DNA from: Pseudomonadota bacterium
Lineage (GTDB): Bacteria > Pseudomonadota > Alphaproteobacteria > RF32 > CAG-239
DNA: 64,000 bases
Assembly: GCA_918234285.1 (NCBI GenBank)
Contig: CAKJXZ020000030.1
Location: forward strand, 32,001-96,000
Direction: 5' to 3'
Shown: positions 13,376 to 42,424 of the stretch, one piece after another
Layout: every line of letters starts with the position of its first letter
Numbering within the stretch: position 1 is the stretch's first letter
Position numbers and translations under genes: made by a program
The notes under the pieces: generated by a model
Told to the model about the DNA's origin: nothing
Seen by the model: the letters and a program-made list of their open reading frames with translations, nothing else
Database searches by the model: none

Positions 13376-14002
13376 CTAAACCGCTATGCCGCACTTTTTG
13401 AGATTATTCAGCGACAATTCTATCACGGCATCTTCCAATTTTTCGATAATCGGCTCGTCCAAAACCGCCACCACCTGCTTTTTCTCGGTGTTGATGGTCA
13501 GATATTGTGCACCGTCCTCACACTCAAGCCAATAGCGCACATCGCCGTTTTTATGCTGATTTGCTTGCAAATTGGCATCAACTTTGTCGAGCGCGGTAAC
13601 CAGGCGCGATTCCGGTGTTTTTTTATCTTCGTATTCGCGCCACAAATCATAGATTCGCGCCCCGAGTTCAGCCGGCAAAATATCTCTATATTTCTGCATT
13701 GCCGCCAATTCACGTGCATCTTTGAGTTTTTTGGCTTCCGGATTTGCTCGCTGCACCGCCTTCGGACAATCGCCGATTTCGGCTTCGGCAATATCATGCA
13801 CCAGTGCCAATTCCAAGAGCCGTGTAAAATTATATTCATGTTTCAGATACGGATACACCATCATCAGCAGCCATGCCAATTTAAAGCTGTGCGAAGAATC
13901 GGTTTCGCTGCTGCCGTCAGAAAGCAAGGTTGCCCGTTTCACCAGGCAAACCTTGTCCAGAATCTTCATAAATTCGAGTATTTGCGCAATTTTATTTTGC
14001 AT
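13376..14002 (-). CDS. HD-domain phosphohydrolase (HD_3 / 5'-deoxynucleotidase-like)
   Basis: ETDSSHS, ALVHDIAEAEIGD, LWREYE, DKVD. Confidence 0.88.
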   Translation of the reverse strand: MQNKIAQILEFMKILDKVCLVKRATLLSDGSSETDSSHSFKLAWLLMMVYPYLKHEYNFTRLLELALVHDIAEAEIGDCPKAVQRANPEAKKLKDARELAAMQKYRDILPAELGARIYDLWREYEDKKTPESRLVTALDKVDANLQANQHKNGDVRYWLECEDGAQYLTINTEKKQVVAVLDEPIIEKLEDAVIELSLNNLKKCGIAV

Positions 14003-15272
14003 TTTTACCTATAAACTTTTTGCCGCCCAAATACGGTTGCAATTTTACCGGAATCCGCACCGTACCGTCGGCTTGTTGATGATTTTCGATAAACGGCACC
14101 AACGCACGCGGCGTAGCGATACCGGTGTTATTCAGCGTGTGACAAAAACGCACTTTGCCGTCGTTGCCGCGATAGCGCAAATTGGTACGCCGCGCCTGCC
14201 ATTCCGTAATATTAGAGCAGGAGTGAGTCTCGCGATAGCAATTCTGCGACGGCACCCAAGCCTCCAAGTCATATTGCCGATATTTCGGTGCGCCCATATC
14301 GCCGGTGCAAACTTCCAGCACCTGATACGGCAATTCCAAATCCTGTAGAACTTCTTCGGAAATCTGCAACAAAGTTTTGTGCCATTTTTCACTTTCCGCC
14401 ATATCATTTTTGCAAATAACAAACTGTTCGGTTTTGAAGAACTGATGCACTCTGACCAAACCGCGCGTATCCTTACCGGCTGCACCGGCTTCGCGGCGGA
14501 AACACGGCGAAAATCCGGCATACAGCACCGGCAAATCGGCCTCAGTCAGCATTTCATCGGCGCGAAGTGAGTTCAAAATCAATTCGGCCGTACCCGAAAG
14601 ATAAATATCGTCGGCCGGCATATAATAAATCTCATCGCGAGCAAACGGCAGATAACCCTGATTGTACAGCGGCTTTTCCTTAGAAAGTGCCGGCACCGTA
14701 ATCAGCGTAAAGCCATGTTCGCGCAGTTTATCCATCACCAACATGTGGATTGCCAACTCGAGTTGCGCCAAATCATTCTTAATGGCATAAGTGCGCGAAC
14801 CGGAAACTTTGGCGATTCGCTCCATTTCGCTCCAATCATTGATTTCCATCAACTCAATATGATCTTTCGGCTGAAAATCAAAATGCGGAATTTCGCCGAC
14901 TTTGCGACGCACCACATTAGCCGAATCATCAGGACCGTCCGGACTTTCCTCACTCGGATAGTTCGGCATTCTGAGCATCATGTCATTGAATTTTTCTTCC
15001 AGAGCGAGCAGTTGCTCCTGTTCTTTTTTGAATTCTTCGCCCACCGCCTTACTTTTGGCGATAATGGCCGGTCTTTCTTCGTTTGATGCGGACTTAATCG
15101 AATTGCTGAGCTTATTTTTTTCTTCTGCCAATGCCTGCGACGACGTTTTAAGTTTATTCATTTCATAAAATGCCGCCAACAGTTCATCAACCTTCTCTGC
15201 CGGAAAGCCTTTGCGCCCCAGGCTCTTCTTCACCCAATCGGTGTTATCTGCAATAAATTTAATATCCAACAT
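13992..15272 (-). CDS. serS: Serine--tRNA ligase
   Basis: MLDIKFI, GTAE, CFRREAGAAGKDTRGLVRVHQF, HTLNNT. Confidence 0.98.
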   Translation of the reverse strand: MLDIKFIADNTDWVKKSLGRKGFPAEKVDELLAAFYEMNKLKTSSQALAEEKNKLSNSIKSASNEERPAIIAKSKAVGEEFKKEQEQLLALEEKFNDMMLRMPNYPSEESPDGPDDSANVVRRKVGEIPHFDFQPKDHIELMEINDWSEMERIAKVSGSRTYAIKNDLAQLELAIHMLVMDKLREHGFTLITVPALSKEKPLYNQGYLPFARDEIYYMPADDIYLSGTAELILNSLRADEMLTEADLPVLYAGFSPCFRREAGAAGKDTRGLVRVHQFFKTEQFVICKNDMAESEKWHKTLLQISEEVLQDLELPYQVLEVCTGDMGAPKYRQYDLEAWVPSQNCYRETHSCSNITEWQARRTNLRYRGNDGKVRFCHTLNNTGIATPRALVPFIENHQQADGTVRIPVKLQPYLGGKKFIGKNAK

Positions 15273-15409
15273 CTTTTTTGCCTTAAAAAATTATAGTTAA
15301 ACCTTGGCAGATTATACGTTGTTTCTCCGAGATTACAACACAAATTTTCATGTTGTGACCGTTTTTCGCACGCAAAAATATTTTTTAGACAAAATATGCT
15401 GTTTTTTGC

Positions 15410-15438
15410 TTGATTTTTTGCAAAAAACCGGTTATACT
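15410..15438 (+). promoter_or_regulatory. Sigma70-type promoter divergent from serS
   Basis: TTGATT-17 bp-TATACT. Confidence 0.65.
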
Positions 15439-15444
15439 GAAGCT

Positions 15445-15979
15445 GTTAAACCTAGGGATTATGTTTGAGATGTATATATAAATTATTGTACTTCTTGTTA
15501 AAGACATAGACCAACTTGTATGACGCTATAATGTTTGAACGTTGTTTCTTTAAGTTAAATAAGCGGCTTAAATTGAGACATACTGGATACGTTTGGTGCG
15601 GTTGGATTTCTTTTTGAGATTCATTTATATGCGAGCCCTAGGTTTTTAATTAGAAGTTGAATTAGATTAAATCGTTATGAAGTGCTTTGTTTTGTGCTTT
15701 TTGCGAATTTAAGATTCTGAGTTATTTGTACTTTATGCCCAAATCTATCATATACCACTCGTAAAATAAGTTTCCGAACCTCGAGCATAAGCGTTGGAGA
15801 ACGTGGGGGTCTGACTGGCGATAGCTTGATCAGTGGAAGGGTATGATAAGTTTGCAATTAGAGAGTATACAGATAATTTTCAAATTTTAAGTTCCGAAAA
15901 TGTCACATTAAATCAGAATTGCTTCGGCAGTTTTGATGCTTTGTGCGGATTAACGAGGAGGTCAAAAATTTATAGAACT
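15445..15979 (+). ncRNA. Candidate long structured 5' leader or ncRNA
   Basis: 10-bp helix AAACCTAGGG (15448)/CCCTAGGTTT (15636); TATCATA..CCACT/AGTGG..TATGATA helix; 11-bp C(UUCG)G hairpin at ~15912-15937. Confidence 0.45.
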
Positions 15980-16474
15980 ATGAAGAAGTTTTTCGTTATA
16001 GCTCTTTTAATGGTTTGTGTGAATACAGTTATGGGACAGATATTTATTCGCAACAATGGAGAGACTTCCACTCTGTCTTTCGGCGGAGTGTACGTCGATG
16101 TTCCGTCAAGCAGTGTGCCCTTTGTAAACTTCTTACGTCCCAACGAGCCGCTGATCCCCGAGGTCGCAATCGTTGCTAGAGAGAAGACCGCAGAGTGGAT
16201 GCACGACTACGGTGCATTAGAGACCGCAATGCGCGTCGGACAAGAGACAAGGAAGCTTACTCCGCTGTTGAGGAGCCTCAAGGCTAGGAAGAGCGGTGCC
16301 GCAAGCAACGACTCTAACTATGAGGCAAGGAAGAAAGCTGATGCTCATAAGGCAGCTCAGGAGTACGCTGCAAAGCGCAACTCTTCGAAGCCGGTTGAGT
16401 TCAAGATTTCTACCAAGGCTGATAGCTCACACACAACCACTACTACTACCGGAAGTTTTTCTTCAGGTATGTAA
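15980..16474 (+). CDS. Orphan secreted protein with atypical codon usage
   Basis: Signal peptide MKKFFVIALLMVCVNTVMG|Q; Lys 12 AAG:1 AAA and Glu 10 GAG:0 GAA (hand count). Confidence 0.75.
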   Translation: MKKFFVIALLMVCVNTVMGQIFIRNNGETSTLSFGGVYVDVPSSSVPFVNFLRPNEPLIPEVAIVAREKTAEWMHDYGALETAMRVGQETRKLTPLLRSLKARKSGAASNDSNYEARKKADAHKAAQEYAAKRNSSKPVEFKISTKADSSHTTTTTTGSFSSGM

Positions 16475-16479
16475 AAAAA

Positions 16480-16522
16480 GAAAACTCCCTGATACCGAAA
16501 GGTTCGGGGAGTTTTCCGTTTT
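16480..16522 (+). terminator. Intrinsic terminator
   Basis: GAAAACTCCC-TGATACC-GAAA-GGTTCGG-GGAGTTTTC followed by a T-run. Confidence 0.7.
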
Positions 16523-16629
16523 TAAAAGCCAAACTTTCTCCATAAATTGTAACAAAATTTTCATACAAAAGTAAAAAATACTGTGTTATAAATAAGTTAT
16601 AAGACGTATTTTGAACAAGGAGAATAACC

Positions 16630-18543
16630 ATGGTCGGAGATTTTGACGACGTAAACAGCCCGGAATTCCAAGAAGCTCTTAACAAAGCAAAAAGAGAGGC
16701 CCAAAAAAGAGAGCAGGCAAAGGAATATCAGCCGACTGCCAAGGAAAAAGAACTTATGCTCAAATTGGCAAAAACTTCGCCTAAAATGTATCGTGATGCC
16801 AAAGCGGGCGCAACTTTGTTGGTGCAAACAGGTAACGCGCAACAAAAAGATGCCGCGCAAAAATATCTTGACGTCATGAAACAGATAGAAAGAGAAAATC
16901 CGGCGTTGAAAAAAACTCTGGACAATCCGCCGAAATTATCGGAAGCGCAGCAAAAAAAGCAAGATATGGAGTTTTTAAATTACTATGCCAAGGAATTCCC
17001 GAACGAATTTAAAGACATGATTAAGTTTGTGGATTTCTACAAATCATCTCCGATTGCTCAATATTATGTCGGCTTAATGAAGGAAGTGCAACAAAATATG
17101 GCGGCACCGCGCGAGCAGGAACATCAGGATAATTCTTCCAACGATGCTCCCAAACCGGAAAAAACCGATAAAGACAATAAACCGGCACAACCTTCCGGTC
17201 GTGATGATGACGGCAATAAAGGATTTATGTATCTTTCCGATAATATGGAACATGCCCTTAAAATGGGGCCTACGGTCTTGAAAGAATATATGGAACAAGA
17301 ACTCGGTGTCGAATTTCCGCGCGATATTATTCGCCACAACAAAGACGGCGGAGAATATATTCCGACCAGATTGTTGCGCAAATGGTTTGAAGAAAATCGT
17401 CTGACCGACGAACAAATGGATAAGATAAATGCCCTGGTCGATGACCGCTCATCTTTTAATGCCAAGGTGCGTGAAATCAACGAGCGCGATAATTATATTG
17501 CACCGACGCCGCAAAACGAACAATCTGAGCAACATGCTGCGGAAAACGGTGAAAACGGAAAATCTGAGGCCGCCCAAAAAGAATGTTCACTTAAAACGGA
17601 GAATAACGGAACCGCTATCTGGACCGTCAGCGGTTTAGATGAAAACGCCGATAACCCTCTCAAAAACGGCACATATACATTCTACAAAAACGAAAACGGT
17701 ATGTACATTCAATATCTCAGCCCGAACGCATCCGAATCCCCGAAATACGGTCCGATGACAGCGGAAGAAATGGCTAATCACCAGATTGTTAAGGCCTTGG
17801 AAAAGGAAGTTGATGCCGAAGCAAACAAACAATATCAGTTTAATTGTTGGCAACCGATGACTGAAGAAGAAAAGCGGGCGCACGACGCCGAAAAAGCAGA
17901 CAAAGAATATGCGGCACATATTGCAGCCATGAAACCGGAAGAAATGGAGAAAGAAAAAGCCGAACTTACGCAAAAAGCAAAGCAGGGAGATAAAAGTGCC
18001 GAGCACAAACTAACCATGCTGGAACAAGAGCAGCAGCAGCGTAAAAAGGCTCAGGAAGCCCAAAAGAAGCAGGAAGATATCGAAAAAATGCGCGAACTTT
18101 TGCGCAACAATCCGAAGAAATTCGAAGATGTCAAAAATGCTTATAAAGCCGCAATGAAAGATGATGTTGTGAAAGAACAGGCCGCTTATTATCTGGGTAT
18201 AATCGACGAAGTGGAAAAAGATGAAGCCACCAAAGAAAAAGTACGCCAGGAAAAAGAACGCTCTCTTAAAAAACTCGAAAAAGAGATCAAGCGTCTCGAA
18301 AAGCAGGCTAAGAAGATGAAAGAAAAAGGCGAAAAAGCCAAGGCCGAACAACTGGAAGCTCAGGCTAAGGAAAAACGCGCCACTTTAGAGCAAATGCGCA
18401 ACGATCGCGCCAAAGCACGGGCAACCGACGGCACGAAAGCCGAAACAACTCCGCAGGCGGATAAAACAGCTACCGACAAAACCCAAAACGTTGAGCGGCA
18501 AATACGGATTATCCGCAGGAGAAATGACAATTCCATGGCTTAA
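16630..18543 (+). CDS. Orphan 637-aa charged/coiled-coil protein with internal helical repeats
   Basis: Long ORF, AAGGAG RBS, K/E-rich, basic C-terminus. Confidence 0.8.
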   Translation: MVGDFDDVNSPEFQEALNKAKREAQKREQAKEYQPTAKEKELMLKLAKTSPKMYRDAKAGATLLVQTGNAQQKDAAQKYLDVMKQIERENPALKKTLDNPPKLSEAQQKKQDMEFLNYYAKEFPNEFKDMIKFVDFYKSSPIAQYYVGLMKEVQQNMAAPREQEHQDNSSNDAPKPEKTDKDNKPAQPSGRDDDGNKGFMYLSDNMEHALKMGPTVLKEYMEQELGVEFPRDIIRHNKDGGEYIPTRLLRKWFEENRLTDEQMDKINALVDDRSSFNAKVREINERDNYIAPTPQNEQSEQHAAENGENGKSEAAQKECSLKTENNGTAIWTVSGLDENADNPLKNGTYTFYKNENGMYIQYLSPNASESPKYGPMTAEEMANHQIVKALEKEVDAEANKQYQFNCWQPMTEEEKRAHDAEKADKEYAAHIAAMKPEEMEKEKAELTQKAKQGDKSAEHKLTMLEQEQQQRKKAQEAQKKQEDIEKMRELLRNNPKKFEDVKNAYKAAMKDDVVKEQAAYYLGIIDEVEKDEATKEKVRQEKERSLKKLEKEIKRLEKQAKKMKEKGEKAKAEQLEAQAKEKRATLEQMRNDRAKARATDGTKAETTPQADKTATDKTQNVERQIRIIRRRNDNSMA

Positions 18544-38595: not shown

Positions 38596-39141
38596 TTACA
38601 AATTCACACCCACAATCTTGTTCTCCTCATCAAGAATGATGATGGGAGCCGATGGAGACGGGCTCACGGGAACCTCGTTGGTCAGGGCCACCTCACGATC
38701 TACGGTGTGAGGTTTACGGATGATGCCCTTGGTCTCTCCGTCGACTATTGAATAGCCAACGTGCTGACCTGGCTGAACAGTACCCCAGTCCTGGTTGGAC
38801 GAAGTATAATTCAACCCTGATGCCAATTTCAGTAGCCACTTGCCGTTGGCTGTAGGTTCAACAGAGAGCACCTCGCTAATCACATACTGGCACGCGGACT
38901 TGCGTGCAATAGTGATGGCTGCAGCTTTTTCACCGGTATAGATTACCAGGAAGAAAGCTTGGGGCCGAGCGGAAATCGCCTGATAATCAAACTTGTTGAC
39001 CTTCAGCTTCTGCGCACCGGCAGAAACTTCAAAATCCATTCCGTTCGGGAGAGCCTGTACACTTGTAATCTCATAGAATTTTTGAGCCGAAAGGCTCAAA
39101 GCGCACATAATGGCGCAAATAGAAAGCACGATTCTCTTCAT
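38596..39141 (-). CDS. Orphan secreted protein with atypical codon usage
   Basis: Signal peptide MKRIVLSICAIMCALSLSA|Q; AAG/GAG-biased. Confidence 0.75.
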   Translation of the reverse strand: MKRIVLSICAIMCALSLSAQKFYEITSVQALPNGMDFEVSAGAQKLKVNKFDYQAISARPQAFFLVIYTGEKAAAITIARKSACQYVISEVLSVEPTANGKWLLKLASGLNYTSSNQDWGTVQPGQHVGYSIVDGETKGIIRKPHTVDREVALTNEVPVSPSPSAPIIILDEENKIVGVNL

Positions 39142-41740: not shown

Positions 41741-42424
41741 TTACTTTCCGGAAATCATTTGCAAACATTTTTCAAATGCCTCCGGCTTCGGCACCGCAAA
41801 CTTATTATCGATTGCGCAGAAGCAATCATATAACGAACTTGCATGCAACACCGGCCTTACTTTTCCAATCTTGTCCTTATACGGCGGCAGATAGCGCTTG
41901 CCATCAAACTTGGTAACCAGAGGAATTGGAACATTCTTCTGATTAATCCAGTAACGGCTGCAACCGAAGTCCTTCACGTTGACGCCCTGATAAGTCAAGA
42001 GAGTAAAGGTATCTTCCACCGCTTCGTTATTGCGCTTGAACAGCGTAAAATTGTTGTAGGTCGGCAACTCCAATCGGCGTTTTTCGCTACCCGCTCTGCC
42101 AAACAGATACTCGGTCTGTTCTTGCAAATGATCAGCGATATCTCTGTCGGTATAAACGCGCACTTCCTCATAAGAGAGGCTGAAGTATACGCCGCACACC
42201 TCGATACCCCATATTTTATCGGAATACTCCGGAATCAGAAAGGGCATCACCACCATCGAAACGGTGTTCTTGTGGCGATAAACCAGACGGCACGGCGGCT
42301 CAAGCGGAATCCAGCCCATCTTGCGACGTTCCAGATAAAACTTGTAACCTTCATTCAACATAGGCAGTTGCTCAACCTTGACTTGCATTCTCTGCAGGTC
42401 CTCATAGATTTTTAATATATCCAT
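41741..42424 (-). CDS. Orphan hypothetical protein
   Basis: 227-aa ORF with consensus promoter upstream and hairpin at ~41707-41738 downstream; no SD. Confidence 0.7.
   Translation of the reverse strand: MDILKIYEDLQRMQVKVEQLPMLNEGYKFYLERRKMGWIPLEPPCRLVYRHKNTVSMVVMPFLIPEYSDKIWGIEVCGVYFSLSYEEVRVYTDRDIADHLQEQTEYLFGRAGSEKRRLELPTYNNFTLFKRNNEAVEDTFTLLTYQGVNVKDFGCSRYWINQKNVPIPLVTKFDGKRYLPPYKDKIGKVRPVLHASSLYDCFCAIDNKFAVPKPEAFEKCLQMISGK

Follow-up and report, generated by a model that had tools for sequence, protein, structure and literature searches.

A covarying, genus-restricted leader RNA precedes small secreted and membrane-protein genes in rumen Alphaproteobacteria

Introduction

Multi-copy "sibling" small RNAs (sRNAs) of Alphaproteobacteria occur as several paralogues per genome, each with a promoter and a terminator-like end. 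Together with attenuation leaders, the Q-rule substrates of Bacteroidetes and integron gene cassettes, they are the described systems closest to the locus treated here. This locus is a cassette at positions 15383-16523 of a 64,000-nucleotide (nt) stretch of DNA ("the window", contig C30:32001-96000) from the genome of an uncultured rumen alphaproteobacterium (G000; 2.0 Mb, 71 contigs, 43% G+C). It comprises a sigma-70-type promoter, a long structured leader, an open reading frame (ORF) of 164 amino acids (aa) and an intrinsic terminator.

The protein end of the cassette recalls a different phylum. The portions of PMC5837995 and PMC10653852 drawn on here describe the Q-rule, a Gln at +1 of signal-peptidase-I substrates, in Bacteroidetes, and PMC5837995 calls it Bacteroidetes-specific. 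Starts that lack a Shine-Dalgarno (SD) sequence and are A-rich, with A at -3, are described for Bacteroidetes in the parts consulted of PMC3155529 and PMC6847099, and the same part of PMC6847099 reports that A at -3 and A-rich starts are effective in Escherichia coli too.

An original prediction for this DNA described a stand-alone cassette and read it either as a domesticated Bacteroidota gene or as an mRNA made in this cell and tuned for translation in another. In this work we compared the cassette with its paralogues and relatives. What emerges is a conserved leader RNA, covarying and restricted to the genus, that is joined to ORFs for small secreted or membrane proteins; these ORFs have SD-less starts and AAG/GAG codons. 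We consider it fairly probable that 15383-16523 is a copy of a modular, host-expressed cassette with a new cis-acting structured leader, found only in one rumen alphaproteobacterial genus.

Results

The leader folds into covarying modules

The leader opens with a domain of ~200 nt, module A, closed by a 10-base-pair (bp) helix, P1, in which AAACCUAGGG (15448-15457) pairs with CCCUAGGUUU (15636-15645); a U-run (UUUUU, 15643-15647) comes next. The invariant 5' word of the leader is the 13-mer UAGGGAUUAUGUU at 15453-15465. P1 appears in the single-sequence fold of module A (z = -3.44), and the 11 long-form copies gave a consensus of 59 pairs in nine helices with 96.7% of cells paired. Fifteen pairs had changed on both sides, compared to 5.8 +/- 1.6 in shuffled controls (0 of 500 reached this number), a comparison that overstates significance because the sequences are close kin. 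In a control free of that problem, where partners were slid by one to three columns, at most five pairs showed changes on both sides.

P1 itself switches from C-G to U-A in three copies. Shorter relatives form it from other complementary variants, for example GAUUAACCUAGGG/CCCCGGGUUAAUC, and in six copies the entire 5' word pairs instead with a local CAUAAUCCCUA. In every copy the invariant 5' word supplies the upstream strand of some helix. The features of the cassette are these:

15383-15409, plus strand: promoter-upstream stretch TTTTAGACAAAA, then a T-tract, from an alignment of 31 distinct copies
15410-15438, plus strand: putative sigma-70-type promoter TTGATT-17-TATACT, a 9/12 match, conserved in 31 copies
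15445-15647, plus strand: module A, a structured 5' domain of ~200 nt (fold z = -3.44; covariation)
15648-15745, plus strand: linker with the conserved words GAAGUGyuUUGUUUUG..GCGAAUU..UGAGUUAUUUGUACUUUA, common to L002, the copy on the genome's own contig C11, L062, L032 and L064
15746-15848, plus strand: module B, a second closed domain with a covarying outer helix
15849-15979, plus strand: module C and translation start region, with a UUCG-capped hairpin (15912-15937), GAGGAGG (15955-15961) and an A-rich unpaired stretch (15962-15979)
15980-16474, plus strand: ORF of 164 aa, with a signal peptide (15980-16036), a Gln codon (16037-16039) and then the mature secreted protein
16481-16523, plus strand: intrinsic terminator, with a hairpin at 16481-16515 (9-bp stem, structured loop) and a T-run to 16523

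In module B, the outer helix (15746-15756 with 15839-15848) has ten pairs, of which six had changed on both sides among seven sequences. The two copies of the module that the genome carries share 91% identity; the single-sequence fold of module B was not significant (z = -0.96). Other copies hold different conserved middle sections of like length (130-405 nt). All three structures named in the original prediction are thus present: the 10-bp closing helix 15448/15636 carries compensatory changes, the second long-range helix (~15746/15848) covaries, and the C(UUCG)G hairpin lies at 15912-15937.

We found no Rfam 15 family in the window segment 14500-17500 at E up to 1, where two chance mir-458 matches scored 24-25 bits against a gathering score of 59, and there were no matches at the gathering threshold in twelve related loci. 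As judged by comparison with Rfam, the leader appears to be a new structured RNA family. A mini-ORF within the leader was considered and rejected. In 19 of 33 copies a stop comes after the AUG-UUU in the 5' word, and the frame ranges from 2 to more than 35 codons; the invariance of its AUG is circular because the copies were collected with a pattern containing ATGTT.

The promoter keeps a constant spacing to the leader

The candidate promoter has a -35 element TTGATT (15410-15415), a 17-nt spacer and a -10 element TATACT (15433-15438). Such hexamers alone prove nothing, because promoter-like matches were no commoner here than in shuffles of this A+T-rich stretch (three found, 3.5 +/- 1.8 expected). 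In an alignment of 31 distinct paralogous and orthologous copies, on the other hand, the TTG of the -35 element was invariant and was followed by an A-tract spacer, TAnnnT and then 14-15 nt to the 5' motif. The T-tract before the -35 element was kept in most of these copies and a TTTTGnCAAA-like word in about half. The real evidence for the predicted promoter, which the earlier reading had placed correctly, is this conservation at a fixed distance in 31 copies. From its position, the transcript would start near 15444-15446.

The cassette is multi-copy and confined to one genus among the genomes searched

Used as the query of a DNA search, the intergenic stretch of 707 nt had matches in 21 of 61 related genomes including G000, at up to five places per genome. 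Except for one weak 56-nt match, all matches lay in the same genus (19 of its 36 other members). The exact 13-mer UAGGGAUUAUGUU occurred at 34 places in 17 of 50 genus genomes, and the promoter with the 5' leader recurred one to three times per genome in 17 of the 50. One-mismatch matches to the 13-mer were no commoner than those of a reversed-pattern control, and a recurrent variant ending in GTC proved false, falling inside a membrane-protein gene. A covariance model of the long form, run with stricter filters, matched none of 138 genomes from 22 other genera of the family, and viral contigs yielded no motif matches and no protein relatives. By these searches the cassette family is multi-copy and genus-restricted, and what had been described as a stand-alone cassette is one member of it. 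One further copy, the third of G066 (L077, G066:C16:21441-21559), matched model positions 77-194 only because N stands in place of its 5' bases, so that masked genomes give copy counts that are lower bounds.

A same-strand ORF started 323-529 nt past the motif in all 30 copies with enough sequence. Fifteen of these ORFs encode members of the family of the window protein (signal peptide, Gln+1), one encodes another signal-peptide protein and three have a lipobox Cys; the remainder are nine small membrane proteins and two proteins without a signal peptide. Protein family and leader go together: 15 of the 17 family-bearing genomes also hold the exact 13-mer, and in both metagenome relatives (2/2) the promoter and motif lie ~350 nt upstream of the ORF.

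The second cassette of the same genome, on contig C11 (L025, G000:C11:24728-25206, minus strand), precedes a 72-aa membrane protein, which is followed by its own terminator and then by another promoter. This second promoter leads two more small membrane-protein ORFs (MKKKEMMLPLLFAAVAFLHC... and MKKKVFAALAVL...), and the trio recurs in L026-L029.

RNA contigs join the leader to the ORF

Four bovine rumen metatranscriptome runs, all from one study, held 20-46% of the words of the region, and RNA contigs from them covered 15471-16437. Two contigs (15592-15790 and 15572-15794) span the U-run, and a third (15783-16216) spans module B into the ORF. An 842-nt RNA contig from a paralogous cassette likewise continues beyond its U-run. 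Neither serS (to 15272) nor the initial ~25 nt of the predicted transcript had RNA-contig cover, and the same was true of the ORF that begins at 16630; such gaps are not evidence in themselves.

The long leader of the original prediction is real. Its junction with the ORF in RNA contigs speaks against the case that had been set against it, a transcript beginning no more than a short way ahead of the ATG.

Codons and start sites set the cassette ORFs apart

Codon usage was compared across 1662 ORFs that start with ATG, do not overlap and span at least 100 aa; this set is crude and some of its frames are false. The ORF in the window uses AAG for 12 of 13 Lys and GAG for 10 of 10 Glu, exactly as had been counted by hand. 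Its combined AAG+GAG share, 0.957, is the highest of the 1662, far outside a host-wide distribution with a mean of 0.28 and a standard deviation of 0.11 (means of 0.30 for AAG and 0.26 for GAG); the binomial tail is 1.3e-11, or 2e-8 after multiplication by 1662. EF-Tu, PPDK, S1, enolase and the ribosomal proteins lie on one codon axis, all with a low AAG+GAG share (0.17 for EF-Tu, 0.15-0.4 for most ribosomal proteins). Because the highly expressed host genes favour AAA and GAA, the codons of the cassette ORF are not the expression optimum of the host.

The same preference was found in the cassette ORFs as a group. AAG made up 173 of 249 Lys codons (69%) compared to 409 of 1417 (29%) in 66 long flanking frames (Fisher p = 1.5e-33), and GAG made up 120 of 203 Glu codons (59%) compared to 328 of 1150 (29%; p = 1.3e-16), in tests where the kin sequences are not independent.

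The genome encodes 40 transfer RNAs (tRNAs) and a permuted transfer-messenger RNA (tmRNA) by ARAGORN, and the host carries both tRNA-Lys(CUU) and tRNA-Glu(CUC). ARAGORN found no tRNA-Glu(UUC) genome-wide, though GAA is the commoner Glu codon; the missing gene is probably in an rRNA or tRNA region that was not assembled.

Upstream of the window ORF, GAGGAGG (15955-15961) ends 18 nt before the ATG at 15980 and there is no SD core 4-12 nt upstream, as first predicted. The trait is family-wide: an SD 4-mer at -17 to -4 was present in 4 of 30 cassette ORFs, compared to 65% of host ORFs with an AAG+GAG share below 0.3. The start profile of the 30 is A-rich (0.5-0.8 from -16 to -5), with A at -3 in 22, T at -1 in 25 and AAG as the second codon in 24, while the peak in G that host ORFs show at -12 to -7 is lacking. 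Many cassettes have a G-rich patch (GGTGAG, GGTGAT or GAGGAGG; G 0.43-0.6) at -24 to -20, too far for a normal SD.

These traits extend beyond the cassettes. Among the 31 genome ORFs with a share of at least 0.6, an SD 4-mer was present in 16%, compared to 65% of the 1013 with a share below 0.3, and 52% were signal-peptide-like compared to ~21%. Many AAG/GAG-rich ORFs bear a lipobox or a signal peptide of the form MKK...(S/N)AQ, with cleavage after the Q. The Gln+1, the lack of an SD and the AAG/GAG codons are thus family traits, common to a wider class of ~30 accessory genes in the genome; these ~31 SD-poor ORFs look like a coherent, foreign-like accessory class. Two members lie in the window (38596-39141 and 41741-42424, both on the minus strand) and further ones on other contigs.

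Sixteen other AAG/GAG-rich ORFs were compared to Pfam and none scored above the cut-off; there is therefore no Bacteroidota-typical domain among these 16. The upstream regions of 16 other AAG/GAG-rich secreted-protein or lipoprotein genes had no leader in common with the window, and showed sigma-70-like promoters and short A-rich leaders.

In genome-wide codon clustering, an unseeded mixture model (K = 2-4) failed to separate the AAG/GAG class and a seeded fifth component swelled to 149 mixed ORFs including spurious frames. Because mixture models failed to isolate the class we adopted the simple AAG+GAG share as its measure, and this ranking puts the window ORF at the top.

A fast-changing secreted protein family

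The signal peptide of the 164-aa protein is MKKFFVIALLMVCVNTVMG followed by Q, with cleavage, predicted by eye, between ...VMG and Q, in agreement with the site that had been proposed. Gln+1 recurs across the family, in 41 of 52 proteins by script and in ~46 of 51 full-length proteins by eye (~90%); three have Cys there. In the host, on the other hand, Gln+1 is rare (22 of 372 signal-peptide-like ORFs, by a crude census that missed the window protein and mixed sites cleaved after AQA with sites cleaved between A and Q).

A word-based protein search returned five relatives with 43-45% identity, and two of their genomes are rumen metagenome-assembled genomes, of an Alphaproteobacteria bacterium and an uncultured proteobacterium. 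Searching 1.84 billion representatives with a profile built from 19 members (E up to 1e-3) brought up 48 clusters, all of 104-277 aa and of the same build: a signal peptide ending A before the Gln, an N-terminal strand region and often Gly/Met/Tyr-rich and Thr/Gln-rich stretches. Of 50 genus genomes, 17 have the family, each as a single copy, and it was absent from 300 other genomes of the class (Alphaproteobacteria only). Many members (P0008-P0053) hold Gly/Met/Tyr-rich runs, and most end in a short word (...SGF, ...GGF, ...TGL, ...SGM, ...MWMY or ...DFSN; often (S/T)G(F/L/M)).

No known fold or domain was recognised. Pfam-A gave only Pox_A12 (E = 0.055, 14 bits against a cut-off of 25). The AlphaFold2 model had a mean predicted local distance difference test score (pLDDT) of 66, with residues 20-104 above 80 and forming three strands and three helices; Foldseek found no match for it in the PDB (best E 0.15). 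The ESM Atlas gave only weak outer-membrane-barrel look-alikes, and these for a different member of the AAG/GAG class. A glutaminyl cyclase was not recognised in the genome, rated 100% complete: PF05096 (Glu_cyclase_2) had no match and PF04389 (Peptidase_M28) scored 17.9 bits, below its cut-off of 21.3.

Gene callers misread these starts. The window protein (P0002) is called from GTG 15833 as 213 aa (15833-16474), running through modules B and C, and the NCBI protein for L002 (P0004; 6001-6525) starts at an internal Met within the signal peptide. Because the starts of both ORFs are misplaced, similar SD-less cassettes are likely to be mis-annotated elsewhere.

The leader is conserved while the ORF diverges

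The cassette sits between serS (13992-15272, minus strand) and a 637-aa ORF (16630-18543, plus strand). The serS-adjacent cassette is common to six species-level genomes (G000, G001, G007, G009, G035 and G066), while in seven of nine other genus loci serS faces a trpS-like gene 145 nt off, without a cassette. Compared to L002, the closest relative, the leader is 91-98% identical, serS 91-98% and the flanking genes 82-98%; the body of the ORF (16001-16400), in contrast, is only 43-64% identical, with the next ORF likewise hypervariable at its start. The terminator after the ORF, another element of the original prediction, is kept in L002 and L003 with altered stem letters. These comparisons indicate that the leader is under selection while the ORF diverges fast or is exchanged.

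L062 consists of module A of L003 and module B of the window, and the modules have therefore been reassorted. We infer that recombination between cassettes drives the turnover of the ORF. A simple recent transfer from Bacteroidota does not account for these data: the searches turned up no homologue beyond the genus, both metagenome relatives carry the same leader, and the serS-adjacent locus is present in six species-level genomes.

As for the neighbours, the 637-aa ORF is Lys/Glu-rich, has a normal SD (AAGGAG) and is without a Pfam family. Its first ~500 nt are hypervariable compared to L002 (24-40% identity, many gaps at 16701-17200), and L003 has no counterpart of it at the same place. On the other side, the serS promoter (15311-15338, minus strand; TTGTAA-16-TATAAT) scores 10/12 and is kept together with its short leader in many genus genomes (query positions 1-99 of the DNA search matched at least 10 genomes).

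Discussion

Together, these observations fit a leader that works on the gene it precedes. The sigma-70 promoter would give a transcript whose first ~200 nt fold into the closed, multi-helix module A, with further structured modules behind it and then, after ~530 nt, an SD-less A-rich start, a small Gln+1 secreted protein and a terminator. The leader would be transcribed with the ORF and act in cis. Because the invariant 5' word always supplies the upstream strand of a helix, and a U-run usually comes after this helix, the leader is probably a conditional attenuator and 5' stabiliser, with the 5' word as its control point. An occupant of this word, whether protein, RNA or ribosome, would block the helix and allow read-through. 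Read-through is seen as contigs spanning the U-run, and termination there is a prediction. Between the conserved leader and terminator lies an ORF that turns over or diversifies very rapidly, and the differing combinations of modules suggest recombination between cassettes.

Several points weigh against this reading. The U-run is not universal: a fixed-offset script, which undercounts, found it in 17 of 31 copies and inspection by eye in ~24, and the P1 stem closes a ~180-nt multi-helix domain, which is unusual for a terminator and where a simple terminator scanner makes no call. The core between the P1 strands ranges from ~75 to ~185 nt among copies, which argues against a single conserved ligand pocket, and no candidate binding factor for the 5' word was identified. 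The copies were gathered partly by the 13-mer, so that its invariance is partly circular, and the shuffle controls, unlike the slid-partner control, are inflated by kinship. The contigs join leader and ORF in RNA-derived assemblies, from which a single transcript, its ends and its level are not readable. A foreign ancestry of the ORF, finally, rests on resemblance, with no donor homologue found.

That ancestry is the alternative that survives best, and as it concerns origin only it is compatible with the cis-acting leader. The ORF and the wider AAG/GAG class would descend from Bacteroidota genes that were later given host promoters and leaders. The Bacteroidota-like traits suggest, by analogy, such an ancestry for genes that the host lineage now inherits and expresses. 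As background, Prevotella tends to favour AAG and GAG. The codon preference is opposite to that of the highly expressed host genes, and the same three traits co-occur genome-wide. Gln+1, present in ~90% of the family, is a trait that the part of PMC5837995 used here describes as Bacteroidetes-specific, and what the passages cited from PMC6847099 and PMC3155529 describe for Bacteroidetes agrees with the start seen here, which lacks an SD, is A-rich and has A at -3. On the other hand, no homologue was found outside the genus (five relatives by word search; 48 profile clusters, all of one build; 0 of 300 Alphaproteobacteria), the 16 class members compared to Pfam have no family and no Bacteroidota-typical domain, and the host is without a recognisable glutaminyl cyclase. 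The codon bias also persists in a very fast-evolving gene, which argues against a fading relic and for selection or import that still continues. The traits of the "domesticated Bacteroidota gene" are thus present, while the origin found no support in any donor relative, and we regard descent from Bacteroidota as possible, short of an even chance.

It is unlikely that module A is instead an independent, multi-copy sRNA gene that acts in trans, with read-through into the ORF incidental or the RNA bifunctional. Such a gene would have a promoter, a closed structure and a U-run, as most copies do; it would occur, as here, in several copies per genome, and the invariant 5' word is what would be expected of a seed or a protein-binding site. 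However, a same-strand ORF always follows 323-529 nt on, with conserved structured modules between and no separately conserved promoter. RNA contigs span the U-run both in the window copy and in a paralogue, and 7 of 31 copies have no run of at least four U.

The repeated unit is very unlikely to be a mobile DNA element rather than an RNA element, whether like a miniature inverted-repeat transposable element with terminal inverted repeats or like an integron cassette. It is multi-copy, P1 resembles a 10-bp terminal inverted repeat, and its small ORFs are orphans of atypical codon usage. However, the internal helices covary, which is not required of DNA-level repeats, and the unit always keeps a set spacing to the promoter ahead of it and the ORF behind it. 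Neither a transposase nor an integrase ORF adjoined the copies read (target-site duplications were not searched systematically), and viral contigs gave no matches.

The proposal that the mRNA is made here and tuned for translation in a Bacteroidota cell is scarcely credible and found no support, as its sole argument is that codons, start context and signal peptide are all Bacteroidota-like at once, while the host has dedicated tRNAs for AAG and GAG, A-rich starts with A at -3 also boost initiation in E. coli (PMC6847099, in the part cited), the promoter and terminator are of host type, the locus is vertically syntenic with the ORF family single-copy per genome, and no transfer machinery is linked to the cassette.

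Returning to the cis-acting leader, a bolder version of it, which we hold to be doubtful, would make it a modular regulatory RNA of a new class. A factor that unfolds the 5'-word helix would switch on a small regulon of secreted and membrane proteins, and the modules would double as recombination arms that swap a single-copy, hypervariable secreted protein. This protein would be built to Bacteroidota rules (Gln+1, SD-less start, AAG/GAG), perhaps to act on or mimic proteins of the Bacteroidota that dominate the rumen.

These data add a well-supported, uncatalogued structured RNA of ~200 nt, with 59 pairs with covariation and further modules, that heads a small regulon in uncultured rumen Alphaproteobacteria. 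They show that "Bacteroidota-only" traits (Gln+1, SD-less starts) can persist family-wide in an SD-using proteobacterium without a recognisable glutaminyl cyclase. It can now be asked what role Gln+1 has without a cyclase, and how SD-less and SD-led mRNAs are translated in one cell.

Comparison with known systems

Among described systems, integron gene cassettes share with this family the small, orphan, fast-changing ORFs with atypical codons that lie between conserved structured repeats. Here, in contrast, each unit has its own promoter and terminator and the units lie scattered; neither an integrase nor attC was seen beside the copies read, for which no dedicated search was made.

Like the Q-rule substrates of Bacteroidetes, the proteins have an MKK-type signal peptide that ends in A before a Gln+1 (~90%). 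Unlike them, they are carried by an alphaproteobacterium with a permuted tmRNA and SD-bearing host genes, in which no glutaminyl cyclase was found (PF05096 none, PF04389 below threshold).

The cassette resembles the attenuation leaders (riboswitch, T-box, RAT/BglG-type) in having a long structured leader after a sigma-70 promoter and a helix followed by a U-run upstream of the ORF, where occupation of the conserved 5' word would block the helix. In contrast to these leaders it has no Rfam match, its core varies from ~75 to ~185 nt with no single pocket, the U-run is absent in ~7 of 31 copies, and no antiterminator protein was identified. The 5' word presumably resembles RAT sites over only ~6 nt.

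The sibling sRNAs of Alphaproteobacteria match the cassette leader in their several paralogous copies, each with a promoter and a terminator-like end. Unlike a sibling sRNA, each cassette copy is the 5' part of an mRNA that continues with 250-350 nt more of leader and an ORF.

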